Source: Alphaproteobacteria bacterium
Lineage (GTDB): Bacteria; Pseudomonadota; Alphaproteobacteria; Micavibrionales; UBA2020
Direction: 5' to 3'
Assembly (NCBI GenBank): GCA_041287865.1
Contig: JBGGMV010000008.1
Span: 70,297-134,296, forward strand
Length of the DNA: 64,000 nt
Both the position numbers and the translations under genes were made by a program. Below are positions 2 to 63,994 of the stretch, piece after piece. How positions within the stretch are numbered: position 1 is the first letter of the stretch; the number at the start of each line of letters is the position of its first letter. The notes beneath the pieces are model-generated. The model was not told the origin of the DNA. It searched no databases and saw only the letters and a list, made by a program, of their open reading frames with translations.

Positions 2-556
2 CTGCTGTCGAAAGGCGCGGATATCGAGGCGCGTTTCGGCGACGACAAACGCACGATTTTGCAGGAAGCCTTCAGCCAGCAGCAGGAGAAGGAAGCGCGG
101 TTTTTGCTGGACAAGGGCGCCGACCCCCTTGCCGCAGTGGAGAGCCGCAACAAAATGACGCCGCTGATGAATTGCCTGGAGAATTTCGGCAACGAAAACC
201 TGATGGATCTGGGCATCGCAAAAGGCATGGATGTGAACGCCGTCAACGGTTTCGGCATGACGCCGCTGTTCTACGCGCATACGGCGGTGCAGGCATTGAA
301 ACTGATCGAGGCGGGCGCTGACCCTGCCCATGTGGACAATAACGGGCGCAGCGCGCTCTCGCTGCTGCCGCCCGATGAAGAGAAAACGGTGCGCTTGATT
401 ATGACCCGGGACGCGGAGATTAAAACTGCACAAACGCGCATGAAAAAGGCGCAGGCCGTGGCGGAGATCGACTCCGCCTGCCACACGCCCTTCGAGGCCG
501 AGACCATGAAGACGCTGAAGATCAAAAAGGGCAAGGGGCAGAAATGGACGCCCTAG
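2..556 (+). CDS. ankyrin-repeat protein, 5' end outside window
   Basis: The frame is open from base 2 (LLSKGADIEARFGDDKRTILQEA...), upstream of the track Met at 59. Ankyrin signatures are present (MTPLMNCL, GMTPLFYAHTAVQALKLIEAGADPAHVDNNGRSAL). It ends ...ETMKTLKIKKGKGQKWTP (tail motif). Confidence 0.8.
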   Translation: MLSKGADIEARFGDDKRTILQEAFSQQQEKEARFLLDKGADPLAAVESRNKMTPLMNCLENFGNENLMDLGIAKGMDVNAVNGFGMTPLFYAHTAVQALKLIEAGADPAHVDNNGRSALSLLPPDEEKTVRLIMTRDAEIKTAQTRMKKAQAVAEIDSACHTPFEAETMKTLKIKKGKGQKWTP

Positions 557-1377
557 AAGACCAGTACCGGGACGGGCTCGCCGCGCTGGTCGCGGAAGGA
601 AACAGCGCCGAGCTGGACGGCCTGCTGAAACAATGCCCCGCCGCCGCCAACTGCACGATCACGTCGGAAGACGGCGTCACGGGCCCCGCCGTCTATGTCG
701 CGCTGCGCACGGGGAAAATTTCCGCCGCGCGGGTGCTGCTGGAACATGGCGCGCGGGCGGACTTCACTGCGCCGGATGGCATACCGCTGATTTATTACAC
801 CTTGGGCATAGACGATATGCAGCATGTCTCGGCGAAGGCCGACCGCGAAACGCTGTTTACGCTGGCCGTCAAAAACGGCGCGGATATCGAGGCGCAAGAT
901 TCACACGGCATGACCGCGCTGATGCGTACCTGTTTCCTGGGCACGGGCCATATCTTTGACTTCCTGCTGGACCACGGCGCATCGCCCAATCCCGCGCCGA
1001 ACTCCAAAGGTTATACGCCACTGATGCTGGCGGTTATCTCGGGCAAAGGCGCGATGATCGACAGGCTGCTGGAGGCCGGGGCCGACGTCAACGCCCGCAA
1101 CGCGGAAGGGAATACGCCGCTGCACTTCACCCGCATCGCCGCCACGGCGCTGCGCCTGATCGACGCCGGCGCGAACCACGCCTGCATCAGCAATTCGGGC
1201 AGGGGCGCGATCGAGCGGCTGAGGCCGGAGCAGCGGAAACTGGTCATGGACGGGCTGCAGGAAAGGTGGGCGGCGGAATGCGAAACCTTCCGCGACGAAG
1301 CCGACCAGCTGTGTCACAAGCCGGTGACGGCGGTGGCCGCGAAACGCCTGAAGCTGAAAATTCCTACCACTTCTTGA
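544..1377 (+). CDS. ankyrin-repeat protein
   Basis: Several ankyrin repeats (GMTALMRTCFLGTGHIFDFLLDHGASPN, GYTPLMLAVISGKGAMIDRLLEAGADVNARNAEGNTPLHF). It overlaps the upstream ankyrin gene by 13 nt, has no signal peptide and ends ...VAAKRLKLKIPTTS. Confidence 0.85.
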   Translation: MDALEDQYRDGLAALVAEGNSAELDGLLKQCPAAANCTITSEDGVTGPAVYVALRTGKISAARVLLEHGARADFTAPDGIPLIYYTLGIDDMQHVSAKADRETLFTLAVKNGADIEAQDSHGMTALMRTCFLGTGHIFDFLLDHGASPNPAPNSKGYTPLMLAVISGKGAMIDRLLEAGADVNARNAEGNTPLHFTRIAATALRLIDAGANHACISNSGRGAIERLRPEQRKLVMDGLQERWAAECETFRDEADQLCHKPVTAVAAKRLKLKIPTTS

Positions 1378-1705
1378 AGATAAAGAACGAGGCCGCGACG
1401 AGGAAGGCAAAGCCGACCGCGTGGTTCCACCTGATCGGTTCGTTCAAATACCAGACGGAAAAACCGGCGAAAACGACCAGCGTGATGACCTCTTGAATGG
1501 TCTTGAGCTGCGCGGCGTTGAAATGGCCGTGGCCGATGCGGTTGGCCGGCACCTGCAGGCAGTATTCGAAAAAGGCGATACCCCAGCTGGCGAGGATCAC
1601 GATCCAGATCGCATGGTCTTTGTATTTCAGGTGCCCGTACCAGGCAAACGTCATGAAGACGTTTGATAGAAACAGCAGGCCGACCGTCTTGACCATGACG
1701 TCCAT
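1364..1705 (-). CDS. small DMT-superfamily membrane protein (DUF486-like)
   Basis: 113 aa with four hydrophobic helices. FMTFAWYGHLKY and AQLKTIQEVITLVVF resemble the DUF486/DMT family. Confidence 0.7.
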   Translation of the reverse strand: MDVMVKTVGLLFLSNVFMTFAWYGHLKYKDHAIWIVILASWGIAFFEYCLQVPANRIGHGHFNAAQLKTIQEVITLVVFAGFSVWYLNEPIRWNHAVGFAFLVAASFFIFKKW

Positions 1706-1717
1706 TTTATGACTCCA

Positions 1718-3046
1718 TTAGCTTGCGACCTTGCGGCCCCAGATGTAGGAAATAAATCCTACGATAAAATTCGTCGCCATCAAAGCGATCAGGATGCCGG
1801 TAAAGCCCATGTGTTTTTGCAGAACATAAGCAAGGGGCACGTAGAGGATAATCGCCTTGAGCAAGATCAGCATCGTGGCGGGGATGGGTTTGCCCATGGC
1901 ATTCAGCGCGGCATTGGCCACGATCATCGCGCCCATCGCGCCGAAGCTGACCGGCACCCAGTGCAGGTATTGCGCGGTATAGCGGATAACATCAGGGTTG
2001 CTGTCGAACAGCGCGGGGATCTGCTGCGCGAAGGCCCAGAAAAGCCCCGCGACGAAAAGCCCCCAGATCATCGCATAGTGCGAGCCGATGCGCATCGCCT
2101 GCTGGATGCGTCCGTAGTTGCCCGCGCCGAAATTCTGGCCCGCAAAAATCGAAACGCCCGCGCCGGTGGCGTAGAAAATCAGCGTGGCGATGCTTTCAAG
2201 TCTGCCCGCGACGCCCAGCGCGGCCACGGCTTCCTTGCCGAAACCGGCGGCCATCCAGGTGATGATGGCGGCGGAAATCGGCGCGATCTGGTTGCTGATG
2301 ACGGAAGGAATGGCGACATGCATGATGCGCGCCCAGCTGCGGAAGACGCCTGCGTGGAAGAATTTGCGCGGGTCGATCACTTTTTTGCGGAAGATGATGA
2401 AGTAAAACGACACGATGCAGGTAAACCACGAGGCCGCGACGTGGGCCGCGGGTGCGCCCGCGAGTTCCATGCGCGGGAAAGGGCCCCAGCCGAAGATCAA
2501 CAGCGGATCGAGGATGAGGTTCGAGGCCGCGAGCAGCGTCATGATGCGGGAAACGAATTTGGTATCGCCCGTCGCGCGGCAGACGGCATTGCCCATCATC
2601 GTCAGGCTGATAAAGGGCAGCGCGACGTACCAGATGCTCATATATTTACGGATGAGCGGCAGCAGCTCGCCCTTCGCGCCCATCAGGCCGAAAATCGCCT
2701 CGGTCGAGAAATGGCCGACAATGCTGGCGAAGACGATCACCACGACGGCGAGGCTGATCGCGTCGGTCGACAGCTCCCGCACCTTCTCCATATCGCCCGA
2801 GCCATAGACGCGGGAGACGATGGACGAGGTGCCGACGTTAAGGCCGAAGATAATGCCCATGAAGAACATCACCACCGGAATGCAGAAACCCAGCGCCGCC
2901 AGCGGTTTCGTGCCCAGCTGGGATATAAAATAGGTATCGGCGACGGTGAACGACGTCATGGCCAGCAGGCCCCAGGCAAGCGGCAGCGCAAGGCGGCGTA
3001 CATGGCCGCCGACATCGCCTTCCAGCAGTGAGGGCCTTGCAGTCAC
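1718..3046 (-). CDS. MATE family efflux transporter
   Basis: 442 aa, polytopic. The N-terminus (RRLALPLAWGLLAMTSFTVADTYFISQLGTKPLAALGF) is typical of MATE/NorM-like pumps. The opposite-strand 440-aa ORF is R/D/G-rich junk. Confidence 0.85.
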   Translation of the reverse strand: MTARPSLLEGDVGGHVRRLALPLAWGLLAMTSFTVADTYFISQLGTKPLAALGFCIPVVMFFMGIIFGLNVGTSSIVSRVYGSGDMEKVRELSTDAISLAVVVIVFASIVGHFSTEAIFGLMGAKGELLPLIRKYMSIWYVALPFISLTMMGNAVCRATGDTKFVSRIMTLLAASNLILDPLLIFGWGPFPRMELAGAPAAHVAASWFTCIVSFYFIIFRKKVIDPRKFFHAGVFRSWARIMHVAIPSVISNQIAPISAAIITWMAAGFGKEAVAALGVAGRLESIATLIFYATGAGVSIFAGQNFGAGNYGRIQQAMRIGSHYAMIWGLFVAGLFWAFAQQIPALFDSNPDVIRYTAQYLHWVPVSFGAMGAMIVANAALNAMGKPIPATMLILLKAIILYVPLAYVLQKHMGFTGILIALMATNFIVGFISYIWGRKVAS

Positions 3047-5424: not shown

Positions 5425-5940
5425 TCAGTTGCCGCGATTGCCGCGTTTGATGGGCCCATGGTTGCGGTCCCATTTGTTTTCGGTGCGGTCGCGCACGTTT
5501 TCGCGGCGGTCGCGGACGTCTTCGGCGGCGTCGCGCTTGTCTTCGCGCGCATCACGGCGGTCTTCTGCCGTATCGCGCTTGTCTTCGTTTTCGTCATGCT
5601 TGTCTTCGGCCGCATCGCGTTTATCTTCGAGGCGATCACGCCAGCCGCCTTCATGGGCTGCGTCGCGTTCGTCTTCTTTCGCATCGCGTTCATCTTCGCG
5701 GGCGTCGCGTTCGTCCTCGTTCGCGTCGCGCTTGTCTTCCTGCGCGTCATGCTTGTCTTCCAGCCTGTCGCGGCGGTTTTCCCAGCGGTCGCGCATATTC
5801 TCGCGGTGGTCGCGGATGTCTTCGAGACGGTCGGCGCGCGGGCGGCCGGCATTGCTCTCCGATGCGCCCTCCTCGGCATAGGCGGCGGTGGAGGCGACCA
5901 GCAGAACGGCGGCCATCACGGCCAGAAACTTGATGCGCAT
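5425..5940 (-). CDS. secreted hyper-charged heptad-repeat protein
   Basis: The signal peptide MRIKFLAVMAAVLLVASTAAYA is followed by about 17 heptads x-x-E-[DN]-x-[RH]-D (AQEDKRD ANEDERD AREDERD AKEDERD...). This frame was chosen over three overlapping ORFs because it alone has a signal peptide and a regular repeat. Confidence 0.6.
   Translation of the reverse strand: MRIKFLAVMAAVLLVASTAAYAEEGASESNAGRPRADRLEDIRDHRENMRDRWENRRDRLEDKHDAQEDKRDANEDERDAREDERDAKEDERDAAHEGGWRDRLEDKRDAAEDKHDENEDKRDTAEDRRDAREDKRDAAEDVRDRRENVRDRTENKWDRNHGPIKRGNRGN
5476..5838 (-). repeat. about 17 tandem 21-nt coding repeats
   Basis: 21-nt periodicity is visible in the DNA (gcgtcgcgcttgtcttc variants), matching the heptads of the 5425-5940 CDS. 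Confidence 0.7.
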
Positions 5941-6044
5941 CGGGATATTCCTTTTTTAAGGGTGGGCGGGTTGCTCTAATGCATTATACGCGCGCAAGGT
6001 TAAAATCCCTGCGCGTAACAAAAACATGCTGTCTTTACAGATAC

Positions 6045-6491
6045 TTATTCCAGATGCGCCTTGAGCATCCAGTGGTTTTTCTGGTGGACTTCCATGCGGG
6101 TGATGGCGAGGTCGACGGTGGGGTCGTCGCCATTGTCCTGCGCGGCCTTCAGCAGGGCCTTGGCGGAGGCGACGATGGTGTCTTGATCCTTCACAAGCGT
6201 TTTAACCATCTCGACAGCCTTGGAGTTGCCTTCGGCTTCCTTGATGTCGGTGAGTTTCAAAAAGGCCTTGAAGCTGCCGGGCGCTTTTTCGCCAAGGGTG
6301 CGGATGCGTTCGGCAATCAGGTCGTTCGCCAAAATCATGTCTTCGTACTGCAGCTGGAACAGCGTGTGCAGCGTATTGAAAGACGGGCCCGTCACATTCC
6401 AGTGGTAATTCTGCGTTTTAAGATAGAGCGTGTAGGTGTCGGCCAGCAGTTTTTCCAGCGCGTCGATAACGGCTTTGTTTTTCTTGCTCAT
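6045..6491 (-). CDS. dps: Dps family DNA-protection/ferritin-like protein
   Basis: 148 aa. LLADTYTLYLKTQNYHWNVTGPSFNTLHTLFQLQYEDM is the canonical Dps motif. The start overlaps the upstream gene's stop by 4 nt. Confidence 0.9.
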   Translation of the reverse strand: MSKKNKAVIDALEKLLADTYTLYLKTQNYHWNVTGPSFNTLHTLFQLQYEDMILANDLIAERIRTLGEKAPGSFKAFLKLTDIKEAEGNSKAVEMVKTLVKDQDTIVASAKALLKAAQDNGDDPTVDLAITRMEVHQKNHWMLKAHLE

Positions 6492-7030
6492 GCGGCTTCT
6501 CCCTGAATGAAGGCGGCTTGTGCGGCGGCGAAAACAACGGCGGCGATGCGGAAGACGTGCTGCACGCCCACCTTCGACACGCCATGTTCCTGCGCGGTGC
6601 GGTTATGCGCGGCGATGCAGGCGCTGCAGCCGTTGATGGCCGAAACGCCCAGCGCGTATAATTCAAACGTCACTTTATCAATGCCGGGGTTGCCGATCAC
6701 GTTCATGCGCAGCCCTGCGGGCAGCTTGCCGAATTCATCGTCGCCGGTCATGTAGGTGGAGCGGTAATAAACATTGCTCATCGCCATGATGGTGGCGGCG
6801 GCTTTCGCGGCGTTGACTTCTTCGGGCGAGAGCGCGGCTGCTTCACCCGCGACGGCCTCGATCACATCGGCGCTGCGCGTTGCATAGGCGCTGGCCAGCG
6901 CCACGCCGAAAATCTGGTTCTGCGTCAGGCCCGAAGAATCATTGGCCTGCAAAACCGATGACAGGTTGAGGCGAATGTCCTTGGCGAAGTCGGGCAGGGA
7001 TTCTTTGAGTTGTTCGATATTCTGCGGCAT
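6488..7030 (-). CDS. AhpD-like alkylhydroperoxidase (carboxymuconolactone decarboxylase family)
   Basis: A CxxC motif sits in GCSACIAAHNRTAQEHG. I chose the ATG at 7030 (MPQNIEQLKESLPDFAKDIRLNL), which gives about 180 aa, typical for AhpD. The track start at 7090 adds 20 unlikely residues. Confidence 0.75.
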   Translation of the reverse strand: MPQNIEQLKESLPDFAKDIRLNLSSVLQANDSSGLTQNQIFGVALASAYATRSADVIEAVAGEAAALSPEEVNAAKAAATIMAMSNVYYRSTYMTGDDEFGKLPAGLRMNVIGNPGIDKVTFELYALGVSAINGCSACIAAHNRTAQEHGVSKVGVQHVFRIAAVVFAAAQAAFIQGEAA

Positions 7031-7194: not shown

Positions 7195-8964
7195 GTGAAC
7201 AAGCGCAAGGGCCTAAAAGGCCTTTTCAACCGGCTGGCAGGTTCTGCTGCGATGGCCGCTGCCCTTTTTACCGGCGTGCCCGCGAGCGCGCAGGACGCTC
7301 AGCCGACTCCGGCGGATATTCCCGCGCAGGTGCAGCTGCTGCAAAGCTGCCCCGCCTTCCCCGATTTCAAGCGCCCCGAAGCACCGATGCTGCGCCAGAC
7401 GGCCAAGGACATGCCCGTCGACGAAGAATTGAAATCGCGCCAGAGATTGCTCCGCCAGCTGGGCATCAATCCCGGCGCAACCGATGGCCTGAACGGCGGC
7501 ACGACGCGCGCGGCGCAGCGCGAATTCATGATGTTCTATGCGCCGCTCTATAACGGCGACACCACGAAGGTCACGCTCGACGATGCCGATGCGCTGCAAT
7601 TAAAGAAATACGCCGACCAGAATACAACCGATATCGCCGCGACCGGCCTGTCGACGGGCGAGGCCGCGGCCCTGCGCCTTGCGTCTTTGCGCAGCGGCGT
7701 CAGCTTCGCCACGCTGTCGTCGACGGCGAAAAAGGGCGGCACGCTACCGGGCGTTTCCTCCACCGGCGCTGCGGCGGACGATTTGTTCAAGTTCGATAAC
7801 GCCAGCTGGCTCTACATGGTCAAGAATTACGGCGATGATTACGGGCTGGGGTTCTATGCGAAACATATCACGCTGGAAACGCGGGATGATGGCAAGTCTG
7901 TGCCTGTGGTCGATAATCCCTTTATCCACCGCCAGCTGCTGAACCTGAAGAATTACCCGCGCATTTCCGCGCTGATGGCGGGGGAATACCTGAAGCACAG
8001 GCCCGACCTGACGAACGTCGCCAACCCGAAAGTGCCGCTGACCGATGCGCGCGTGAAGCAGCAGCAAACCGATCTGCTGGCGCTGGGTTTCGATATCGGC
8101 TCCACCGATGCCGACGGCATCAAGGGCGGCTTCACCACGCTGGCGATGAAAGAATTCCAGCTTTTGCATGGCGAAGGCCAGCCCACCGGCAGCCTGAGCG
8201 ATATCGAGTCTGCGAAACTGGCATCGGCCGCAGACGCCGCGCGCGTCGAGGGCCGCAAATATAATGTGCCGAACGCGGCCAGCGGATCGATCCGCATGGC
8301 GGCCGACGCGGTGAAAGATTCAAAGGGCCCCGAATTCCCCTACCTGATGGAGCTGGCATCAGCGGAAAGTTCTTTCCGCGTCAGCGCAAAGGCCAGCACA
8401 TCGACCGCCACCGGGCTTTACCAGTTTATCGAGAGCACCTGGGCATACATGTTATTACACCATGGCGAGAAACACGGCCTTGGCGATTTTTCGAACGAGG
8501 TTGAAACCTATTCTGATGCGCTGGGCCGCCCGCAGGCGCGTTTCAAAAACCCGGTGATCCGCGCCGAAGCGCTCGAGATGCGCAAGAACCCGCAGCTCTC
8601 GGCCCTGTTCAGCGCCGATTTCCAGTCCGACAACAAGGCGAAGGAAAGCTGCTATGTGACGGGAGATCTCTCGCGCACCGATCTTTACCTCGCGCATTTC
8701 CTCGGCGCGCATGACGCCGTGTACTTTATAAATCAAATGAAGGCCAACCCCGAGAAATCGGCGGTGGAAACCTTCCCCGAGGCCGCCGCCGCTAACGCCA
8801 GCATCTTCTACGCCCGCGACGGCAAGACGGTGCGCGACCGCAGCCTTGAAGAAGTCTATGAAGTGCTGGGCCGCAAGTTCAACCGCGGGCTTTACGACGA
8901 GGTGGCGACCGTGCCGCTGGCCAAGCCCACCCTGCCCAAGCCGCCGGGACAGTCTCCCTCCTGA
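7195..8964 (+). CDS. SLT-like/peptidoglycan-binding protein, paralog 1 (Sec signal)
   Basis: GTG start with AGGA 8 nt upstream. Signal peptide ...AAMAAALFTGVPASAQDA. Two PG_binding_1-like segments (LGINPGATDGLNGGTTRAAQREF and LGFDIGSTDADGIKGGFTTLAMKEFQ). SLT catalytic motif MELASAESSFRVSAKASTSTATGLYQFIESTW. Confidence 0.8.
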   Translation: MNKRKGLKGLFNRLAGSAAMAAALFTGVPASAQDAQPTPADIPAQVQLLQSCPAFPDFKRPEAPMLRQTAKDMPVDEELKSRQRLLRQLGINPGATDGLNGGTTRAAQREFMMFYAPLYNGDTTKVTLDDADALQLKKYADQNTTDIAATGLSTGEAAALRLASLRSGVSFATLSSTAKKGGTLPGVSSTGAAADDLFKFDNASWLYMVKNYGDDYGLGFYAKHITLETRDDGKSVPVVDNPFIHRQLLNLKNYPRISALMAGEYLKHRPDLTNVANPKVPLTDARVKQQQTDLLALGFDIGSTDADGIKGGFTTLAMKEFQLLHGEGQPTGSLSDIESAKLASAADAARVEGRKYNVPNAASGSIRMAADAVKDSKGPEFPYLMELASAESSFRVSAKASTSTATGLYQFIESTWAYMLLHHGEKHGLGDFSNEVETYSDALGRPQARFKNPVIRAEALEMRKNPQLSALFSADFQSDNKAKESCYVTGDLSRTDLYLAHFLGAHDAVYFINQMKANPEKSAVETFPEAAAANASIFYARDGKTVRDRSLEEVYEVLGRKFNRGLYDEVATVPLAKPTLPKPPGQSPS

Positions 8965-9053
8965 AAAACCTGCGAAAATCCCGATAACGCGGTTTTTCAT
9001 TGACTTGGGATCATGAAATATCCTATTTTCATAATCGCTGAAAAAGGGTTTAC

Positions 9054-9791
9054 ATGAACGCCGTATCCGCCATCAGAGAACATATCGATATCGTTTTTAA
9101 TGCCCTCGTCGGCATTCCGAACGATCCGGACAGCCTGATGCATTTTGCGATCCGCCGGGGCGATGCCTGGCGCTTTAAAAAAGCGCTGGCGCGCGGCGCG
9201 AACCCCGAGGCGCGCGACGGCGCCGGCTGCACCGCGCTCGAAAGCGCCGTGCAATACAAATGCCCCGAGATGGTGAAGGAACTGCTGGCCCGGAAGGCGA
9301 ACCACAAGGGCGGGCGCTACACCAGTATCGGCAGTTTCTTCGGCGCCAACCTGACCGTGCCTCTTGTCGATGCGGCGATGGCCGGCAGCATGGAAATGGT
9401 GAAGCTTCTTGTCGAGGCCGGTGCCGATATCAACGCGCGGGGGCACGATGGATGGACGGCTCTCCATCTGGCTGCGGTCAATTCAAACCGGGAATTAGCC
9501 GGCTATCTTCTCGCGCAGGGGGCTGACCCGAATGTGCGCGACGACCAAGGCAATATTCCCCTCTACTATGTGTTTCAGGGCAAATGCAATCGGGAGGTGG
9601 CTTTGGCGCTGCTTGACGCGAAGGCCTATGTGCCCGACGAGAGCACGCCCGTCCTCTGCACGCGGGCAAAAGCATGCGGCTGGCACGATATCGCCGAGGC
9701 CATCGACCACCGCAACGTCACCGGCGTGGAACAGGGCCTAACCACAAAGCGCAACATTCCGGTCCGCAAGCCTTTCGTTTTCAAACATTGA
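9054..9791 (+). CDS. ankyrin-repeat protein
   Basis: Repeats include GCTALESAVQYKCPEMVKELLARKAN and GWTALHLAAVNSNRELAGYLLAQGADPNVRDDQGNIPLYY. No signal peptide; it ends ...IPVRKPFVFKH. Confidence 0.85.
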   Translation: MNAVSAIREHIDIVFNALVGIPNDPDSLMHFAIRRGDAWRFKKALARGANPEARDGAGCTALESAVQYKCPEMVKELLARKANHKGGRYTSIGSFFGANLTVPLVDAAMAGSMEMVKLLVEAGADINARGHDGWTALHLAAVNSNRELAGYLLAQGADPNVRDDQGNIPLYYVFQGKCNREVALALLDAKAYVPDESTPVLCTRAKACGWHDIAEAIDHRNVTGVEQGLTTKRNIPVRKPFVFKH

Positions 9792-9860
9792 GGCCTCTTC
9801 CCGCCCCGGGAGGATAAAAACGGCCAAATCTTAACTTTTCATTAACACTTCCCTGCTACC

Positions 9861-9871
9861 TTATGTATAAT
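9861..9871 (+). promoter_or_regulatory. TTATGTATAAT box (-10 TATAAT) upstream of SLT paralog 2
   Basis: TTAACA (9842-9847), an 18-nt spacer, then TATAAT (9866-9871). Confidence 0.5.
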
Positions 9872-9933
9872 AGAAGGATTCGACCCTTGGGGTGTGGGCC
9901 TCTTGGGAAATAACGATAAATTCTGGGTGTGTA

Positions 9934-11673: not shown

Positions 11674-11827
11674 GGCGTTAACCGGCTACCCCCGAGTCTT
11701 GTTTCCCAATGTTCAAGAATCGGCGTTTTTTGGCCGTGGGCGGGGTTTATCAATGCTTTGATTTGTAATGATATTGCCCTCCCCCACCCCCCTTTATTAA
11801 GTGTTCTTTAATAGTTTACAGGTACAA

Positions 11828-11838
11828 TTATGTATAAT
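11828..11838 (+). promoter_or_regulatory. TTATGTATAAT box inside the palindrome AATTAT-GT-ATAATT, upstream of SLT paralog 3
   Basis: AATTATGTATAATT lies at 11826-11839 in an AT-rich island about 70 nt upstream of ATG 11910. Confidence 0.45.
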
Positions 11839-11909
11839 TATTAATTCTTTCCTAAGATCGTTAACGGCCTCTCCCGGAACGGTTTTAGTCAAAGCAGGGT
11901 GGTGTGCAT

Positions 11910-14027: not shown

Positions 14028-14047
14028 TTTAAAGGATATAACGCGAC

Positions 14048-18626: not shown

Positions 18627-18636
18627 TTGACATAAT
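18627..18636 (+). promoter_or_regulatory. TTGACATAAY promoter box
   Basis: TTGACATAAT, a 17-nt spacer, then TACAAC (18650-18655). It lies upstream of ATG 18677. Confidence 0.55.
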
Positions 18637-19541: not shown

Positions 19542-19551
19542 ATTATGTCAA
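19542..19551 (-). promoter_or_regulatory. TTGACATAAY promoter box
   Basis: On the minus strand: TTGACATAAT, a 17-nt spacer, then TAGTAT (19528-19523). It lies upstream of the 19252-19482 gene. Confidence 0.6.
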
Positions 19552-51900: not shown

Positions 51901-52060
51901 CGGCGTTAGCATCACTTCATTCACCCAGGCCGACATCGACGCCGGCCGCCTGCGCTATGTGCATACAGCAAATGGCGCCGCGAACGATTCCTTCACCTTC
52001 ACCGTCTCGGACGGCGCGGCATCGATCGCCGCCTCCAGCTTCGCCATCGATGTGACGTAA
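48971..52060 (+). CDS. large cadherin-like (CSPG-type) repeat protein
   Basis: 1029 aa. An about 147-aa Ala/Ser/Thr-rich N-terminal region is followed by eight about 111-aa repeats (NTGxTVxEGG..ITxxQL...DxDT....I.YTVT..P..GRLE....PG..ITSFTQADIDAGRIRFVH.G.E....SF.F.VSDG......F.F.VTPVDDAP). No signal peptide and no RTX or other C-terminal domain. GGAG lies 5 nt upstream of the ATG. Confidence 0.85.
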   Translation: MADAITSFFLLQANRSGSASAQIAPSALELGSDTLTRNPRLETLGKLFAPPSGASNIAGLDSFLAVATAAKTAAGAPARNSKDALKQAPELRKNDSAALDVFIKRETAAESRLKQLLQASTAAAATSTTSKPAETEAATAAASITRNSGLRITEGGDGIINSRRLNTNIPGARPQDIIYTVNESPRNGRLELTAKPGEAVTTFTQQDLNLGRLRYVSNGSEARGDSFDFTVRGGEQELSGSFGISVAPVNDAPAVSVNTGLTVAEGDTATLTTAQLSVSDPDSRAEDTVFTVTGGPQHGRLEYAASPGLAITSFTQGDIAAGRVRYVSDGSEVTSDSFTFTASDGISATAAETFNINVTPVDDSATIVNNTGATVTEGGSAVLSETQLSSTDVDTAVEDIIYNVTSGPSGGYLEFTDNAGTAITSFTQADVNSGRVRYVHGGGEAPADSFNFTVTGSTATTASASFAFTVTPVDDAPQLQANTGATLNEGGTTAITAAQLSVSDVDTAASGIVYNITAGPQHGRLEYASSPGTAVTSFTQADIDSGRIVYIHDGSETTSDSFTFTAADATTTLGASSFALNVTPVDDAPVITNTDGTVVEGGTSTITSSQLGASDPDTAAANITYTVTAAPTTGRLENATNPGVSITSFTQADIDAGNIRFVHDGGEAPTSSFGFSVSDGTTTQAGNTFTFGVIPVDDAPVLAANTGGTLAEGGSSIITSAQLRTTDVDTAAANITYTVTSGPTNGQLERTTNPGVGITSFSQADIDAGRIRFVHNGSETTTASFGFSVSDGTTTQAGNTFGFSVTPVDDAPVLTNTGGTIAEGGSSIISSSQLRATDPDTAAANITYTVTAAPTTGRLESATNPGVSITSFTQADIDAGLIRFVHNGGEAPTASFGFSVSDGTTTQAGNTFTFGVTPVNDAPVLATNTGTSVARRDTTTITSAQLQTTDVDNTPSSLTYTVTASPTRGRLELSTNPGVSITSFTQADIDAGRLRYVHTANGAANDSFTFTVSDGAASIAASSFAIDVT
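49412..52057 (+). repeat. eight tandem about 333-336-nt coding repeats
   Basis: Repeat boundaries are marked by V[DN]D[AS][AP] at aa 249, 360, 473, 585, 696, 808 and 919. Units 5-7 (about 50738-51736) are near-identical at protein level. Confidence 0.85.
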
Positions 52061-54728: not shown

Positions 54729-55304
54729 TTAAACCGGCTTTTTTACTTTCAGCGTTTTCATGAGTTTGGGATTGCCGACCGGCGCCACCGCCTGCGCGAC
54801 TGCGTTGTCGATGCTTGCGGCGTTCAGGGCCCGGGTTTCGGCGGTGTCGCAAATCTTGAGAATGGCTTGCAGGTTTTTAGCCGATATATCGACATTCTGC
54901 AGACGCCAGACATCACCCGGGCGAATCTTGCTGTCATCAGAGGTTTTCCAGTTCATTTTAGGGGTGGGCCCGACCCAGAGCTCCGCGCAGATATCGGTTG
55001 TATAGGCAAAGCCCTTCAGGCGCTCGGTTTTGTCGGCGTAGTCTTCAAGATGCTTTTTCTGCTTTTCGCGCAGCGCGTCGACTTTTTCCAATACCGCCTG
55101 AATGCCGGAGTGGTCTAAAACGCCCCTCTCCTCCGTCGCTATCCCGTACCTGCCGCCCGTCATCGCGCCGCTGGCCACATTCGTATTGAAAAGCCACGAA
55201 AAGAAATCCCGCTTGTGCCGCGGCTCCTTCTTCAAATGATATTCCTCGGTGCCGGTGACGCGGAGGATAAAGGTTACTTCCTGCGGCGGTTTTTGCTCCA
55301 TCAT
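54729..55304 (-). CDS. hypothetical protein with C-terminal tail motif (paralog A)
   Basis: 191 aa with no signal peptide. It is paralogous to the upstream gene (VLDHSGIQAVLEKV vs PLDHSTIGKVFETV; ISAKNLQAILKICDT vs ITAENLAAFIALFDT). It ends ...KLMKTLKVKKPV. Confidence 0.65.
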   Translation of the reverse strand: MMEQKPPQEVTFILRVTGTEEYHLKKEPRHKRDFFSWLFNTNVASGAMTGGRYGIATEERGVLDHSGIQAVLEKVDALREKQKKHLEDYADKTERLKGFAYTTDICAELWVGPTPKMNWKTSDDSKIRPGDVWRLQNVDISAKNLQAILKICDTAETRALNAASIDNAVAQAVAPVGNPKLMKTLKVKKPV

Positions 55305-55305: not shown

Positions 55306-55902
55306 TCAGGGGCTCTTCCTGATCTGCAGCGCCTTCATCGGCTTCACGTCGCGCACGGGTTCGACCGCGCTGCTGATGGCGGCCTTGACCGCAAGTGCCT
55401 GCGCGGCCTGATCGGCAAGGCGCTTGTCCCGCGTGTCGAACAGCGCGATAAAGGCGGCGAGATTTTCGGCGGTGATCTGTTCTTCCTGGAACAACCTGGC
55501 GCCGGTCGCGCCGCCCTTGGTCCAGAGCTCCTGCGGGTTGAAATGGCGGGGGACGAACTGGTCTTTCCTGCCGGCCCAGACCTGCGTTATCGTCTCGCTC
55601 CAGTAATCGAAGTCGTCGCGCGACGGGGTTTGCGCTTTGTCGATGCGCGTTTTCATGGCGGCGGTTTTTGCGGCGACGGTTTCAAAAACCTTGCCGATCG
55701 TGGAATGATCGAGCGGGCCCTGCCCCGATTCCATCGAGCTGCCCTCGATCGCATGCCAGCCCTTTGGCGCGCGGCGGCCGAAAATTTTCGCGAGGCCTTT
55801 GCGCTCCGGGATCTTCATTGCATTGCGGTAACGGCCCAGCACTTCGACAACGAAGACCAGTTCATCGGCAGGTTTTTCGGCGCTGGGCGCATCGGCAGCC
55901 AT
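55306..55902 (-). CDS. hypothetical protein with C-terminal tail motif (paralog B)
   Basis: 198 aa with AAGGAG at 55918-55913. It ends ...VKPMKALQIRKSP. Its stop lies 1 nt before paralog A's start. Confidence 0.65.
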   Translation of the reverse strand: MAADAPSAEKPADELVFVVEVLGRYRNAMKIPERKGLAKIFGRRAPKGWHAIEGSSMESGQGPLDHSTIGKVFETVAAKTAAMKTRIDKAQTPSRDDFDYWSETITQVWAGRKDQFVPRHFNPQELWTKGGATGARLFQEEQITAENLAAFIALFDTRDKRLADQAAQALAVKAAISSAVEPVRDVKPMKALQIRKSP

Positions 55903-55990: not shown

Positions 55991-56287
55991 TTATGCCGCT
56001 TTGGGGAAGGGCAGGCGTTTCAGCGATTTGTTGCGGCTTTTCATCAGTGCGCGCAGCATCTGCACATCGCGGTCACAGCCGCCCTGCGCCACCCTTTCGA
56101 TCACGACATCGAAGGGAGTCTTTAAAAACGGCGCTTTTTCAGGGCGCGCGGCGACAAGTTTCTGCACGACCAGCAAGTCCTCCACCGATCCGGAAGCGGC
56201 GTAGCGCTCGACGGCGACATCGAGGCTGGTCCTCGCCGCAAGCGCGTTAAAAGCCGCGCAATTAATTTTCCAGAAGATGACAGTCAC
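55991..56287 (-). CDS. hypothetical protein
   Basis: 98 aa located downstream of epmA on the same strand. It ends ...KSLKRLPFPKAA, off by one from the tail motif. Coding status is uncertain. Confidence 0.35.
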   Translation of the reverse strand: MTVIFWKINCAAFNALAARTSLDVAVERYAASGSVEDLLVVQKLVAARPEKAPFLKTPFDVVIERVAQGGCDRDVQMLRALMKSRNKSLKRLPFPKAA

Positions 56288-56355: not shown

Positions 56356-57372
56356 TTATTTTTGGAAACTTACGGGCGCGGCCTGCACAAGCGAAATATC
56401 CTCTGCCCCCGTCGCCAGCATGACAAGACGATCGAGCCCCAGCGCATTGCCGCTGCAGGCCGGCAGGCCATGCTCCAGCGCCTTGAGGAAATCTTCGTCG
56501 ACCGGATAATCCTCGCCATAGACTTTTTTACGGAGCGCGACATCGGCGATGAAACGTTCGCGCTGCACCTTCGCGTCGGTCAGCTCGCCGAAGGCATTCG
56601 CCAGTTCGATGCCGCAGACATAAACTTCGAACCGCTCCGCAAAGCGCGCATCGGTGGGTTTCGGGCGCGAGAGCGCGGCCATCGAAACGGGATAGTCGTA
56701 GATGATGGAGGGCGCGGGCGAGCCAAGACGCGGTTCCACCTTCTCCATCAAAATTTTCAGCAGCGCATTTTCCCAGTCGTCATGCGGCGAGACATAGACG
56801 CCGATGCGCTTCGCCTCCGCGTTGATATGGGCGAGGTCGCAGAGGTTATTCGATATATCCACGCCCGCATATTTCTTCAGCGCATCCACCACGGTAATTT
56901 TTTCCCATGGCGCGGCAGCATCGCAGGTGCGCCCCTCAACCGTCACGGGTTTCACGAGGATGCTGCGGATAAGATCCGCCGTTTCATCCATCATTTCGGT
57001 GTAATCCATGCCAAGGCTGTACCATTCCAGCATGGCGAATTCGGGGCTGTGCCATTTCGAGCCTTCGCAGTTGCGGAAGACTTTCGCCAGCTGGTAAATT
57101 TTCGGCATGCCGGCAACCAGCAGTTTTTTCATGGCGAATTCGGGACTGGTGTGCAGGTACATCGTATGCTTCGACTGCCTGTCCGCCGTGACCAGTTCGG
57201 TGCGGAAGGCCTGTATATGCGCCTCCATGCAGGGAGCCACCTGCAGCGCGGGTGTTTCGACCTCAAGATAGCCACGCGTATCGAAAAAATCCCGCACCGC
57301 GCCGAAAATGCGCGCGCGTTCCTTTAAATAAGGAACCTTCTTCATAAATAAATCGGGATGCCACCAGTTCAT
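56356..57372 (-). CDS. epmA: EF-P--(R)-beta-lysine ligase (EpmA/GenX/PoxA, truncated class II LysRS-like)
   Basis: 338 aa from ATG 57372 (MNWWHPDLF...). It has YLHTSPEFAMKKLLVAGMPKIYQLAKVFRNCEGSKWHSPEFAMLEWY and class II motif 3, GNALGLDRLVML. The track ORF to 57660 adds about 96 junk residues that overlap the ankyrin gene. Confidence 0.85.
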   Translation of the reverse strand: MNWWHPDLFMKKVPYLKERARIFGAVRDFFDTRGYLEVETPALQVAPCMEAHIQAFRTELVTADRQSKHTMYLHTSPEFAMKKLLVAGMPKIYQLAKVFRNCEGSKWHSPEFAMLEWYSLGMDYTEMMDETADLIRSILVKPVTVEGRTCDAAAPWEKITVVDALKKYAGVDISNNLCDLAHINAEAKRIGVYVSPHDDWENALLKILMEKVEPRLGSPAPSIIYDYPVSMAALSRPKPTDARFAERFEVYVCGIELANAFGELTDAKVQRERFIADVALRKKVYGEDYPVDEDFLKALEHGLPACSGNALGLDRLVMLATGAEDISLVQAAPVSFQK

Positions 57373-57373: not shown

Positions 57374-58015
57374 TTACTGGTCGAACTGTTTGAGGCGGAT
57401 TGTTTTGACAGGGACAGGCGCGCCCGCGCCGCCATAGACGGCGGACGAAATTTCCGCCTGCAATGCGGCTTCCTTTTCTTCCTTCGCAATACGCGCGACT
57501 TCGGAGAAGTGGAAGGCGATGCTGTCGGCGACTTTCTTGCCGGCGGGCCAGCGCGTATCTTCTTCGCCGCGCTGATAGATATTCCGGTGCTGCGCATCCT
57601 CCACCATCGGGTCGGCGCCGTGCCTGACCAGCCAGAGCGCGCGGTCGGTCGTATTGTCACGCAGGTCCATGTTGTAGGCCCAGTGCAGCGGGGTCATGCC
57701 CTTCTCGCCCGCCTTCAGGTTCACGTCGGCCCTGGCATCTTTCACCAGCCATTCGGCGACGTCATAGCGGCGTTCCATCAACGCGCGCACCAGCGGGCCT
57801 TCGCCGTCGTCATCGACGACATTGGCTTCGGCCCCGTAATTGAACAGCAGCTTCGCCATGTCGAGATCGCCGCGCCATGCCGCGTGGAACAAGGCCGTGC
57901 GGCCGTTCACATCCGTCGCGCCCGCATCGGCCTTTTCGGCCAGAAGTTCTTCGGCGCGGCCGGTATTGCCGTCCTTCACCGCCTTCATCAGCATTTCGTC
58001 GAATTTGCGCGCCAT
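57374..58015 (-). CDS. ankyrin-repeat protein
   Basis: GRTALFHAAWRGDLDMAKLLFNYGAEANVVDDDGEGPLVRAL and GMTPLHWAYN are ankyrin repeats. It ends ...VPVKTIRLKQFDQ. Its stop lies 1 nt before the epmA start. Confidence 0.85.
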   Translation of the reverse strand: MARKFDEMLMKAVKDGNTGRAEELLAEKADAGATDVNGRTALFHAAWRGDLDMAKLLFNYGAEANVVDDDGEGPLVRALMERRYDVAEWLVKDARADVNLKAGEKGMTPLHWAYNMDLRDNTTDRALWLVRHGADPMVEDAQHRNIYQRGEEDTRWPAGKKVADSIAFHFSEVARIAKEEKEAALQAEISSAVYGGAGAPVPVKTIRLKQFDQ

Positions 58016-58063: not shown

Positions 58064-58073
58064 ATAATGTCAA
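58064..58073 (-). promoter_or_regulatory. TTGACATAAY-type promoter box (TTGACATTAT)
   Basis: On the minus strand: TTGACATTAT, a 17-nt spacer, then TATAAA (58050-58045). It lies upstream of the ankyrin gene start at 58015. Confidence 0.6.
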
Positions 58074-58089
58074 CCGCTTGGCTATCTAT

Positions 58090-58099
58090 TTGACATAAT
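58090..58099 (+). promoter_or_regulatory. TTGACATAAY promoter box
   Basis: TTGACATAAT, an 18-nt spacer, then TATAGT (58114-58119). It lies upstream of ATG 58144 and is back-to-back with the minus-strand box 16 bp away. Confidence 0.6.
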
Positions 58100-58143: not shown

Positions 58144-58860
58144 ATGACTCGCACTATTGATGCCCAACTGGTTGAAGAAGCACTCGCCGAAATCGCCCTC
58201 GTCGACACGGGTGGCCAGATGGCCAAAGTGATAGAGGACGCGCGCCATGAAGCCTGCATATCACGGCACTGCGAATACGACGTCAAACCCGCAAGCCTTG
58301 CGCTCCTCATCACCGGCAGCGACAAGGCCTGCGAAACGCTGGCCAAAGCCTATACCAAGGCTCTTTACGGTTTGGGGCTGATCGACGGCAAGGCCGGCAA
58401 TCCCGCGTCCAAAACCATCGACTGGACAGGGCAGATCTGCGACAACGAAGCCAGCCGCACCATGCAGGAGCAGAGCTGGGCCAGCCGCAAAATGACGGAG
58501 GCCGGCAAGGCGGCGCGCAGCGGCACGCTGGTCATTCGCGACATCCACCGCAAGCCTTATGAAGGCTCTCCCGACGAGGCCGAGGCCTCCGGCCCCGCCC
58601 TGAAAGGCGCTCTGGAAGCCGTCACGGAATTCGTCACCAAAGGCACCTGGGGCCCCCGCACCCCCGTCGTCGTGCTGACCGGGCCCGAGGTCGAAACCCG
58701 CGCCTTTATCGCCGCAACGCCGGAATTAGCCAAGCTTTTCAACAATAAATCCGTGTACGCCGACGCCTGCCCGCCGCTGCCGGAGGTCTATTCGACCGAA
58801 CTGGAAAGCCCGATCACCACCCGCCGCCCGCTGACCTTCAAGCCGCGCAACATTTCTTGA
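58144..58860 (+). CDS. hypothetical protein, degenerate AAA+ (CbxX/SpoVK-like) fold by eye, with C-terminal tail motif
   Basis: 238 aa from ATG 58144. LALLITGSDKACETLAKAYTKALYGLGLI occupies the position of Walker A (GxxGxGKT is lost), SGTLVIRDIHRK that of Walker B (DE is lost), and PVVVLTGPEVETRAFIAATPELAKLF that of sensor 1 and the following helix. It ends ...TTRRPLTFKPRNIS. Confidence 0.6.
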   Translation: MTRTIDAQLVEEALAEIALVDTGGQMAKVIEDARHEACISRHCEYDVKPASLALLITGSDKACETLAKAYTKALYGLGLIDGKAGNPASKTIDWTGQICDNEASRTMQEQSWASRKMTEAGKAARSGTLVIRDIHRKPYEGSPDEAEASGPALKGALEAVTEFVTKGTWGPRTPVVVLTGPEVETRAFIAATPELAKLFNNKSVYADACPPLPEVYSTELESPITTRRPLTFKPRNIS

Positions 58861-60987: not shown

Positions 60988-60998
60988 AGGTTATCCGG

Positions 60999-62167: not shown

Positions 62168-62752
62168 TTAGGGGTGGCTACTCTGCGGCTGCTTCAGCTT
62201 CACCACCTTCATCGGCGTGACGGCTTCGCCTGTCACGACGGGCGCGGCGGCGGCCTTGAAATCTTTTCCCGCGTCCAGCGTGCGGAGCAGCTGCGCCCGC
62301 GCCGCGGCAAGCTCTTCGGGCGGGCGGGTGGCGAGAATTCTGTCGCCGTTATGGGCGAAGTAGCGATCAATGCTCTCCGCGCTGCCCTTGACGATTCCGG
62401 CGCCAGCCGCAGAACCCATCGTCGTGATCAGGCCGCCGATGCAGAACAGCCCGGAGGCGATCCCCGCCTCCATCAGCTTGACCGTCAGCAGCCAGGATAT
62501 GAACGCCGGCACTGACACCGCAAGATAAAGCGCGCCGAAGGTCGCGGCAGCCGAGCAGATAAGCCCTCCCACCGCCATCATATTGGCATGCGCGACAAAT
62601 CCCTTCCTGACGCGCGGCGCGACCGGCCTGAGCAATTCGGCGGGGCCTGTCCTGCAGTTGTTGTATAACTCGCGGTGCATGCCGCAGAGAGGCGAATTCC
62701 ACAGCCATTTTGCAGCCCCCTGCATTTTTTCCAGCACGTCCCACGTTTTCAT
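62168..62752 (-). CDS. hypothetical protein with central bilobed hydrophobic domain and C-terminal tail motif
   Basis: 194 aa. The about 60-aa hydrophobic block is MMAVGGLICSAAATFGALYLAVSVPAFISWLLTVKLMEAGIASGLFCIGGLITTMGSAAGAGIV. It ends ...VTPMKVVKLKQPQSSHP. The start overlaps the upstream paralog's stop (ATGA). Confidence 0.7.
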   Translation of the reverse strand: MKTWDVLEKMQGAAKWLWNSPLCGMHRELYNNCRTGPAELLRPVAPRVRKGFVAHANMMAVGGLICSAAATFGALYLAVSVPAFISWLLTVKLMEAGIASGLFCIGGLITTMGSAAGAGIVKGSAESIDRYFAHNGDRILATRPPEELAAARAQLLRTLDAGKDFKAAAAPVVTGEAVTPMKVVKLKQPQSSHP

Positions 62753-63327
62753 GGCGCGGCCTCCGTCTGGCCCGGATGCTTCAGCTTCAGCGCCTTCATC
62801 GGCGTCACCGCCGCGCCGGTCGTCACGTCCGCGCTGCGGTTAAAAATCCCTTTCGCGGGTTTCGGCAGCGGCGCGGGCGCCTCGTTGGGCGGCAGCAGAG
62901 TAGTGCCCGGCTGAAGCGCTTCGAGATCGCGCTCGAAAAGGAAATAACGTTCGGTGCGGCGCGCGGATTTGCGCATCGCGCCCACCGCCACGGTCAGCGC
63001 CGCCAGCGCGGCCGTCGCCGCGAAAACCGGCAGCGCGGCGGCCGTGACCGTCGTCGCCGCGTAAACCAGCGCCGCCATCTTGAGGACCTGGTCGCCCGCC
63101 AGCACCGCGCCCGCGAAAGCCGTCATGCCCGAGGCCATGGTGCCCTGCAGGTAATACTGCGGAATGTGTTTGCGGCAGGCGTCGAGCGCACGATCGGCAA
63201 GTTTCTCACCGGCCTCGTGCAGCGGTTGCAGCACGCGCCACGGGCCACGCAGCCATGCGTCGCGGCTGCCCTTGCGGACAGCGTCAACGGTCGGCTGCAT
63301 AAACTGCGGCATCTTCATCAGGGGCAC
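62749..63327 (-). CDS. hypothetical protein with central hydrophobic domain and C-terminal tail motif (paralog)
   Basis: 192 aa. The hydrophobic block is MTAFAGAVLAGDQVLKMAALVYAATTVTAAALPVFAATAALAALTVAVGAM. It ends ...VTPMKALKLKHPGQTEAAP. Confidence 0.7.
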   Translation of the reverse strand: MPLMKMPQFMQPTVDAVRKGSRDAWLRGPWRVLQPLHEAGEKLADRALDACRKHIPQYYLQGTMASGMTAFAGAVLAGDQVLKMAALVYAATTVTAAALPVFAATAALAALTVAVGAMRKSARRTERYFLFERDLEALQPGTTLLPPNEAPAPLPKPAKGIFNRSADVTTGAAVTPMKALKLKHPGQTEAAP

Positions 63328-63414
63328 ACACTTTCTTTTGCCGCCTGTTTTCTTGTGCCGTTTTTTTCAGGCAACGGCTTTTACAGGCTTGATAAACCTA
63401 CCAAAGCCGGATGC

Positions 63415-63424
63415 GTTATGTCAA
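63415..63424 (-). promoter_or_regulatory. TTGACATAAY promoter box
   Basis: On the minus strand: TTGACATAAC, an 18-nt spacer, then TAGGTT (63400-63395). It lies upstream of ATG 63327. Confidence 0.55.
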
Positions 63425-63451
63425 TTAAAATGGGGGCCAAAGGCCTTAAAA

Positions 63452-63994
63452 TCAGGGCTGCTTTTTCAGCTTCGTGACCGGCAGCAGGGTGATGCGGTCT
63501 TTTGTGCCGTTGCCCATGGCGTTTACTTCTTCGGCCAGTTTCTGGCGCGCCGCTTCTTTTTCCTGCGCGGGGTAGACGTCGGTGTAAATCTGCGTGCCGA
63601 TGGCGTCGTCGGGCAGCAATAGAACGGCGAAGGTGGAGGGCGGCAGGGCCTCGGCGGGATCGGCCTTGTGGATGCGGTTCCAGTCGATGTCGATGCCCTT
63701 GTTGCCGCGGCGGATGGCGCGGGGGTGTAGCGCGACGGGATCGTTTTCGTGGTGCGTGGCTTCCATCAGCGCGACGGCGCCCTCGGGCAGCGGCGCGGGC
63801 GGTTCCTGCCCCAGCGTGATCTGCCAGAAGTTTTTCCATTCGCTTTGCGTGCGCACCGCCATGCCGATCGTGCCCGAGCCCTTGGTGTAAGGCCCCGTAA
63901 TAAAATTGCCGCCGTTGATCTGCGGCAGTTTATTGCCGAAGGCGCGGCGGACGCGGGATCTTTCGTCCTTTATGTCGATGTTTGTGAAGTCCAT
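63452..63994 (-). CDS. hypothetical protein with tail-like C-terminus, 5' end possibly outside window
   Basis: At least 180 aa. The frame stays open to the window edge upstream of Met 63994. It ends ...DRITLLPVTKLKKQP. Confidence 0.6.
   Translation of the reverse strand: MDFTNIDIKDERSRVRRAFGNKLPQINGGNFITGPYTKGSGTIGMAVRTQSEWKNFWQITLGQEPPAPLPEGAVALMEATHHENDPVALHPRAIRRGNKGIDIDWNRIHKADPAEALPPSTFAVLLLPDDAIGTQIYTDVYPAQEKEAARQKLAEEVNAMGNGTKDRITLLPVTKLKKQP

Follow-up and report, generated by a model that had tools for sequence, protein, structure and literature searches.

Unrelated, non-Sec proteins of Alphaproteobacteria, among them the VirB/D4 substrates VirF, VirE2 and VirE3 of Agrobacterium and Msi059/061 of Mesorhizobium, carry short, uncleaved, positively charged signals at their C termini, and the Dot/Icm system of Legionella and Coxiella serves a large, fast-evolving, ankyrin-rich repertoire with a C-terminal signal, in which many effector genes share a promoter element (the PmrA regulon). 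Type I signals, of the HlyA type or on the TRPs and Ank200 of Ehrlichia, are also C-terminal and uncleaved and direct export in one step, with precedent for ankyrin proteins as type I substrates in Alphaproteobacteria, and the antibacterial type IV effectors of Xanthomonas have a C-terminal element common to unrelated effectors, the XVIPCD, which is read by VirD4. Here we describe a short C-terminal tail that resembles each of these in such general respects and that occurs on eleven proteins, and in variant form on a twelfth, encoded in a 64,000-nucleotide (nt) stretch of an alphaproteobacterial contig (JBGGMV010000008.1, positions 70,297–134,296), hereafter the window. The tail is a portable, peptide-level C-terminal signature on unrelated non-Sec proteins, and we favor, with moderate confidence, the reading that it serves as an uncleaved export or translocation tag on a co-regulated set of effectors. 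The literature that we searched contains no description of the tail motif.

The motif is real, longer than the pattern first proposed for it and strictly C-terminal. A preliminary description of this DNA had quoted eleven tails, all of which we found at their positions (listed in the table below, in which carriers bear the names used here, taken from their first coordinate). Written as the regular expression [KR].[LIVF].[LIVF][KR].{0,13}$, the proposed pattern matches 12 of the 59 called proteins of the window, namely the eleven and a DUF2339 membrane protein (26576–29533), and about one-fifth of the window's genes are tail carriers. From the rate of internal matches (9 in 19,962 residues), 0.37 proteins would be predicted, and shuffling the last 20 or the last 40 residues gave a mean of 1.24 or 0.95 matches, with a maximum of 6 in 2,000 shuffles. 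As controls, the same expression matched 16 real C termini (2.5%) among 639 genes from unrelated bacteria (Fisher p = 5e-7) and 8 (1.0%) of 802 non-coding-frame segments of window DNA (Fisher p = 3e-10), which bears out the claim that the motif is commoner than chance.

Aligning 29 tails from the window and its relatives extended the pattern to V/I/A at position −6, K/T at −5, V/P/A at −4, M at −3, K/R at −2 and P at −1, followed by L/I/F at 0, K/R at +1, L/F at +2, K at +3 and P at +5, or in compact form V-[KT]-[PV]-M-K-P-L-K-L-K-x-P; the last core position is Lys in 26 of the 29. We then scored proteins with a 12-column profile trained solely on tails of other genomes, with the window tails excluded. 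Ten of the eleven carriers scored at least 9.0 (Ank 57374 reached 7.7), and a score of at least 8 was found at none of 18,428 internal positions of window proteins and in none of the 639 control genes. The profile left a single false positive in the window, a K/P-rich housekeeping tail at 8.3. The motif is uncommon among housekeeping proteins, in shuffled tails and in other genomes, and the refuting outcomes named in the preliminary description thus did not occur. By the same measure, the DUF2339 protein has a negative score and is a chance match, and the SLT paralogs 1 and 4 and the proteins at 18677, 38136 and 45045, once listed as weaker relatives, score at most 4, are merely K/P-rich and were ruled out as carriers. 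The twelfth case, 63452, had been proposed as an imperfect fit and proved to be a genuine variant: its orthologues in L034, L009 and L010 (L-numbers denote the related contigs or loci compared with the window) keep [IV]T[IL][LM]P..[KR][LF]K, with PLRFKPK in the L010 copy. A metagenome scan with the 63452 family returned no match.

These counts bear directly on the idea that the tail has no function and is a by-product of K/P-rich C-terminal extensions present genome-wide, combined with paralog ancestry. Many non-carriers indeed have K/P-rich ends, 24% of window proteins end in Pro, the last 20 residues of non-carriers have a mean charge of +1.4, and the housekeeping tail scoring 8.3 is of this kind. 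However, shuffled tails yield about 1 match against the 12 observed, and the hydrophobic positions and Pro −1 are shared both by families that are unrelated outside the tail and by orthologues at about 30% identity. The shuffles and the conservation among orthologues largely refute this idea, and we give it almost no credence.

Outside their tails, the carriers are unrelated. BLAST with the last 22 residues stripped separates them into the five Ank proteins, which resemble one another solely via their repeats, the pair 54729/55306, and 62168, 62749, 19582, 58144 and 63452, or about seven families where at least six had been suggested. Except for Ank, the carriers match no Pfam, NCBIfam or PADLOC family (the NCBIfam and PADLOC searches covered ten carriers and neighboring genes). 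As had also been claimed, a hydropathy heuristic (not SignalP) finds no N-terminal hydrophobic, signal-like segment on any carrier, and by the same heuristic the window proteins that have a Sec-like N terminus (the Sel1-repeat protein, LpxR, SLT paralog 1 and others) all lack the motif. Nor do the N termini of the carriers share a second feature that could act as an export signal.

Conservation of the tail is at the level of the peptide, as the preliminary description had it. Tail DNA differs between families, with both codons and residues varying, and the single DNA stretch shared among tails measures 24 nt and consists of identical residues written in the genome's preferred codons; since residue identity and codon bias explain this sole similarity, we ruled out a tail-encoding DNA repeat or mobile cassette. 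The 58144 family could be traced by exhaustive profile search to 27–31% identity, and at that overall identity P229, L230 and K233 are at least 90% conserved (alignment A2), whereas the Pro-rich linker preceding the tail cannot be aligned. Orthologues of Ank 57374 at 31–37% identity (alignment A5) keep K-x-h-R-[LF]-K (h, hydrophobic), with a recognizable variant, T-A-R-F-R-R, in a more distant subgroup; the variant form ARFRR is that of the L011 group. The body of 55306, an orphan that matches only itself among 5.8 billion proteins, is 30% identical to that of its L006 orthologue, whereas the two tails are nearly identical (VKPMKALQIRKSP versus VKPMQKLQIRKGP). Its tandem paralog 54729 has orthologues ending in NPKLMRPLNFKK (L006) and KKMKPLNFKKSR (L034), and the L034 orthologues of 62168 and 62749 end in VTPMKAITLKKGSGAAP and AIKPLKPIALKKGPEVSA, respectively. 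Past the core there is no such constancy, not even in close orthologues: members of the Ank 57374 family have QFDQ, MPGAS or TPGA there. Orthologues at 27–37% identity thereby retain the tail between two variable flanks, the linker on one side and the post-core residues on the other, and on these alignments the tail peptide is under selection. The genes that carry it come and go: they are fast-evolving accessory genes, orphan or confined to one clade. Thus 19582, Ank 23695 and the non-carrier 18677 are missing at the syntenic locus of L037, a relative whose TrpRS is 82% identical, and L034 has nine or ten carriers in 20 kb, extra paralogs included.

The core lies 1–9 residues from the C terminus, with 24 residues following it in one L034 paralog, and in 58144 the tail is predicted to sit on a disordered extension: the AF2 model of this protein has a predicted local distance difference test (pLDDT) score of 83 overall and of 56–65 across the last 30 residues, which are modeled as low-confidence coil. 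The body of 58144 has a CbbX-like AAA+ domain with a degenerate P-loop (best Foldseek match 3syk, CbbX). Two giant proteins, P0023 and P0024 (2,321 and 2,202 aa), match a 30–50-residue stretch of the 58144-family profile, with 17 matches in one and 5 in the other, and the AAA-like segment of this family may occur as a repeat in giant proteins elsewhere.

A disordered and accessible tail, as predicted, on proteins that appear co-regulated would also suit a C-terminal degron, through which ClpXP, ClpAP, Lon or FtsH would turn over phase-specific proteins at the switch between attack and growth, and basic-plus-hydrophobic C-terminal motifs are known ClpX signals, for example of the MuA type. Yet known C-terminal degrons need the last two or three residues and a free carboxylate, whereas here 1–9 (once 24) unconserved residues follow the core. 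More generally, extreme C-terminal degrons and PDZ ligands are recognized by their final two to four residues with the carboxylate free, a dependence not seen in these tails, whose post-core residues differ in length and sequence between orthologues. A degron would also leave the exclusion from Sec proteins and the effector-like gene content unexplained, and we consider it very unlikely. A classical nuclear-localization signal, a KKXX endoplasmic reticulum retrieval signal, a beta-clamp-binding motif and a PDZ ligand were each rejected, as their spacing or C-terminal position misfits the profile.

Charge raises a different alternative, in which the tail acts at the destination by binding a conserved prey or host component or anionic membranes, with export directed by some other feature. 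If formed into a beta-strand, the alternation of basic and hydrophobic residues in the tail would be amphipathic, carriers have a net charge of +2 to +5 over their last 20 residues, and effector families of other bacteria often share localization motifs. However, the near-invariant Pro −1, Met −3 and Pro +5 point to a specific protein contact rather than to generic lipid binding, and six residues are short for membrane affinity. Moreover, no second shared N-terminal feature was seen that could serve as the other export signal, and the motif is never internal, although a target-binding motif need not be terminal. On balance, we regard this alternative as rather improbable.

Most of the carriers also share a promoter-like motif ahead of their operons. 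The window contains eight TTGACAT[AT]A (TTGACATWA) sites, all intergenic, and the extension beyond TTGACA is present at 8 of the 10 intergenic TTGACA sites of the window; the 11-mer TTGACATWAYG occurs 5 times against 0.08 expected. Five of these sites point into the carrier operons of Ank 23695, Ank 57374, 58144, 62749-62168 and 20019-19582, the others point into the orphan genes 18677, 38593-38136 and 19252, and none in the window lies ahead of a housekeeping gene. A frequent form is TTGACATAATG, in which ACATWATGT is partly palindromic, and a −10-like hexamer follows about 17 nt past each site. In form, the sites resemble strong promoters of the sigma-70 type whose −35 region is extended and partly palindromic. 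Nine related genomes (L006, L008–L011, L013, L014, L016 and L017) keep the motif before carrier orthologues, for example as TTGACATTATGGAATAT ahead of the Ank-epmA operon, and the divergent pair between Ank 57374 and 58144 is also present in L006 and L008. Such sharing supports co-regulation of the carriers as a probable explanation; the motif proves neither a dedicated regulator nor secretion.

One of these operons brings in a further alternative. Ank 57374 abuts the start of epmA (56356–57372, −), an EF-P lysyl-transferase-like gene of the tRNA-synt_2 family in relatives, with which it is apparently translationally coupled. The pair occurs clade-wide (L006, L008/L034 and L009–L019) and is followed by a highly conserved 98-aa protein (55991–56287 in the window) and then by carrier paralogs. 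This lasting association with a housekeeping gene is what one would expect if the tail were used inside the cell, to dock co-regulated proteins on a common scaffold, chaperone or polar or attachment-site organizer, with no export at all. A conserved, sequence-specific, Pro-flanked motif on a disordered tail is typical of peptide-in-groove binding, a common promoter motif is compatible with any regulon, and no secretion genes lie nearby in the window. What docking leaves unexplained is the strict exclusion of the tail from Sec-signal proteins, the orphan status, rapid divergence and frequent gain and loss of the carriers, and the predominance of ankyrin and hydrophobic-hairpin proteins among them. 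We consider intracellular docking unlikely, though the likeliest of the alternatives to export.

The coordinates of the carriers and of the promoter-like sites are collected in the table. Three gene models deserve comment: Ank 2–556 is truncated at its 5' end by the window edge, its full length being 298 aa as seen in L001; the start of 58144 matches the NCBI gene model; and 19582 is the second gene in the operon that begins with 20019–21173.

Table 1. Tail carriers and TTGACATWA promoter-like sites of the window (positions in nt; core, position of the core of the tail).
Feature	Position	Strand	Tail or site sequence	Core	Profile score
Ank carrier (Pfam Ank)	2–556	+	ETMKTLKIKKGKGQKWTP	509–526	10.0
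Ank carrier	544–1377	+	AAKRLKLKIPTTS	1342–1359	12.4
Ank carrier	9054–9791	+	PVRKPFVFKH	9768–9785	9.0
Carrier, 144 aa, no family match	19582–20016	-	AMKPIKFKPPGQ	19597–19614	25.3
Ank carrier	23695–24558	+	VKVRPFRLKM	24535–24552	14.0
Carrier, 191 aa, tandem paralog of 55306	54729–55304	-	NPKLMKTLKVKKPV	54741–54758	17.0
Carrier, 198 aa	55306–55902	-	VKPMKALQIRKSP	55318–55335	11.4
Ank carrier	57374–58015	-	PVKTIRLKQFDQ	57389–57406	7.7
Carrier, 238 aa, CbbX-like AAA+ fold	58144–58860	+	ITTRRPLTFKPRNIS	58825–58842	
Carrier, 194 aa, internal hydrophobic hairpin	62168–62752	-	VTPMKVVKLKQPQSSHP	62192–62209	17.9
Carrier, about 190 aa, internal hydrophobic hairpin	62749–63327	-	VTPMKALKLKHPGQTEAAP	62779–62796	23.3
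Variant carrier, 180 aa	63452–63994	-	ITLLPVTKLKKQP	63461–63475	
TTGACATWA site	18627–18635	+			
TTGACATWA site	19543–19551	-			
Promoter-like site upstream of 20019-19582 operon	21224–21232	-	TTGACATAA		
Promoter-like site upstream of Ank 23695	23616–23624	+	TTGACATAA		
TTGACATWA site	38951–38959	-			
Divergent promoter-like pair between Ank 57374 and 58144	58065–58098	.	TTGACATTA (minus, 58065–58073); TTGACATAA (plus, 58090–58098)		
Promoter-like site upstream of 62749 and 62168	63416–63424	-	TTGACATAA		

The window is part of a bacterial chromosome of about 60% G+C and has about 58 genes. Recognizable housekeeping genes (including those for IleRS, a TrpRS-like protein, gcvTHP, transketolase, GAPDH, ffh, rpsP and rimM) are interspersed with the five Ank genes, one Sel1-repeat gene, four large SLT/PG-binding/CHAP paralogs, a cadherin-like giant and many genes without a family. 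We measured relatedness with TrmD from L002, a contig that extends the window. The source organism, a metagenome-assembled alphaproteobacterium, is Micavibrio-like, because the nearest TrmD is that of an uncultured Micavibrio sp. (91%); other alphaproteobacterial metagenome-assembled genomes (MAGs) follow at 74–82% and named Micavibrio MAGs at 63–74%. The canonical tail is restricted to a clade with TrmD identity of at least 74% and 57–63% G+C, and small samples of outgroups and of Micavibrio-like genomes with lower G+C did not show it. Cultured Micavibrio are obligate epibiotic predators of Gram-negative bacteria, and a 2025 review states that the structural and regulatory bases of the prey–predator junction remain unknown. 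In a Micavibrio-like organism, the likely target would be prey bacteria rather than a eukaryotic host.

Compared in detail with the systems introduced above, which the preliminary description had named as parallels (VirB/D4, Dot/Icm and type I), the tails lack the defining sequence features of each. Their location agrees with that of VirB/D4 signals, which occupy about the last 20–50 residues. VirB/D4 signals are hydrophilic and weakly sequence-specific around an Arg consensus (Vergunst 2005, via PMC10025392), whereas the tail uses Lys, has hydrophobic residues, Met and Pro at fixed positions, and lacks R-x-R in spite of its positive charge. The window contains no VirB/VirD4 genes. Dot/Icm signals have a Glu-rich E-block and small polar residues; the tail is dominated by K, L, P and M and has no acidic block, and TTGACATWA, which overlaps a −35-like TTGACA, is unrelated to the PmrA box. 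The XVIPCD folds into a domain of about 120 residues that contains several motifs and has a Gln-rich tail, whereas only about 12 residues are shared here.

For type I signals, the known composition is rich in L, D, A, V, T, S, I and F and poor in K, H, P, M, W and C, on acidic, repeat-rich proteins. The last 50 residues of the carriers have 53% of the former set, close to the average of the protein set, and 24% of the latter, which rises to 34% in the last 20; carrier isoelectric points (pI) range from 5.3 to 9.9 with a mean of 7.7, and Pfam finds no RTX or Gly-Asp repeats. No ABC transporter, membrane fusion protein (MFP) or TolC gene is adjacent in the window or in the related loci examined. 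The cadherin-like repeat protein of the window (48971–52060, +), by contrast in composition, has 80% of the favored and 2% of the disfavored residues in its last 50 and fits the type I rule perfectly; it is 1,029 aa long, has no signal peptide, ends in FAIDVT and is conserved in L034 and L016.

Encapsulin cargo peptides offer a closer match in form, being C-terminal, about 10 residues long, alternately hydrophobic with terminal basic residues, and attached to unrelated cargo by a flexible linker. They are Gly/Ser-rich (approximately SLGIGSLKG) and encoded beside the shell gene, whereas the tail has no G/S-rich core and no encapsulin is among the window's Pfam matches; we know of no ankyrin or membrane-hairpin encapsulin cargo. 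Sorting signals of the LPXTG or PEP-CTERM type differ as well, in that the carriers have neither a Sec-like N terminus nor a hydrophobic segment past the motif.

Ankyrin proteins of predators need not be effectors, to judge from the one characterized case in a predator, Bd3460 of Bdellovibrio, a periplasmic ankyrin protein with a Sec signal that acts as a self-protection factor and is encoded beside cell-wall hydrolases. Ank 9054–9791 has a similar context within the SLT/PG-binding/CHAP cluster, but in contrast to Bd3460 the ankyrin proteins of the window have a C-terminal tail and no signal peptide. The cluster itself (7195–15670, +) comprises four tandem paralogs of 540–707 aa with PG_binding_1 and SLT domains, and CHAP in the third, and the ankyrin carrier follows the first; L042 and L044 have a single SLT/PG-binding copy beside IleRS. 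These paralogs may be prey cell-wall enzymes.

We propose that the tail would act as a short linear motif, approximately V-[KT]-[PV]-M-[KR]-P-[LIF]-[KR]-[LF]-K-x(0-2)-P, displayed on a flexible C-terminal extension, and that it would mark lineage-specific, co-regulated, fast-evolving proteins made in the cytoplasm for one common receptor. A sequence-specific, Pro-flanked peptide of about 12 residues on the disordered terminus of unrelated proteins implies one common protein receptor, most likely the substrate-recognition component of a one-step export or translocation system, through which the tagged proteins would be moved out of the predator, to its own surface or into prey or host. The signal would probably remain uncleaved and, because 1–9 variable residues (once 24) follow the core, would be recognized as an extended peptide rather than via the free carboxylate. 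The adjacent Sel1-repeat protein was considered as a conserved receptor and rejected, as it is missing from the syntenic L034 locus.

An export tag is the best-supported reading because the tail is excluded from Sec proteins, the genes that carry it are effector-like and turn over rapidly, and the lineage is predatory; with their ankyrin repeats, hydrophobic-hairpin proteins and a pseudo-ATPase, the carriers look like an effector repertoire. Of the original proposal of a portable secretion, translocation or sorting tag, the portable, C-terminal and selected character stands, whereas a role in secretion is what we infer by elimination, since type I and type IV systems are, to our knowledge, the sole ones to recognize C-terminal signals that stay uncleaved on proteins of the cytoplasm. 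Several observations weigh against export. No secretion machinery is encoded in the window, as had been noted from the start and as its Pfam matches confirm, or in the related loci examined, and the cultured relative Micavibrio aeruginosavorus ARL-13 reportedly has neither a type III nor a type IV system (type II and complete type I systems are reported for the species). Rich in K, H, P and M, the last 20 residues are the reverse of what the type I rule asks for, the Lys residues spaced around a hydrophobic core are unlike the VirB/D4 Arg consensus, and known signals of either the type IV or the type I kind are seldom so sequence-specific. In addition, Ank 57374 is locked clade-wide in an operon with the housekeeping gene epmA, which an internal role would explain no less well than a role as an effector. 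Within the export reading, no single known secretion system is favored.

Beyond the tail motif, the C termini of this genome have other peculiarities. Of the 59 window proteins, 14 end in Pro, a share that is 7% among relatives within the clade and 1.3% among the 639 control genes, and many non-carriers have K/P/A-rich C-terminal extensions in which KPPG or KPPK recurs; terminal Pro slows translation termination. An AMP-binding enzyme (24752–26533, +) and a YtxH-like protein (23042–23545, +) end alike, in ..PKAPKPPAP and ..PKTPPAPPAL, and orthologues of this pair (L037, L042 and L044) end in PKPPK[ML] or PKPPNA. The two proteins are unrelated, and their endings may represent a further C-terminal motif, distinct from the tail. 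In L010 (2535–5159), four tandem paralogous membrane proteins of 205–235 aa all end in ..PF(A/V)..(F/V)(M/L)GVELW, but within a single family.

Elsewhere in the window, the open reading frame (ORF) of the TrpRS/TyrRS family (21235–22860, −) encodes 541 aa from a TTG start, with about 190 residues upstream of the catalytic domain; this N-terminal extension may be real, because the best metagenome relative (L037, 82%) aligns from residue 10. The gene at 5425–5940 (−) encodes a 171-aa protein with a signal-peptide-like N terminus and RD/ED-rich 7-residue repeats (a 21-nt period in the DNA), and a Dps-like gene lies beside it (6045–6491, −). The plus-strand ORFs at 5458–5979 and 5979–6506 were rejected as shadow ORFs.

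The tail and the promoter motif together provide a way of listing candidate effectors across the clade from sequence alone, and the tail could serve both as a peptide bait for its receptor and as a portable tag for reporters. Should a known system prove to read it, the tail would stand out among the signals of that system for its sequence specificity; otherwise, it would point to a new route. Even if secretion proves to be wrong, a 12-residue motif kept across about seven families, at 30% identity in the protein bodies, points to a common partner. We further suggest, as a bold and unlikely extension of the export reading, that the tail might mark proteins for delivery from predator to prey or host by a route belonging to neither the classical type I nor the classical type IV systems, in which case the tagged and promoter-marked proteins would be the first defined repertoire of injected effectors of an epibiotic, Micavibrio-like predator.

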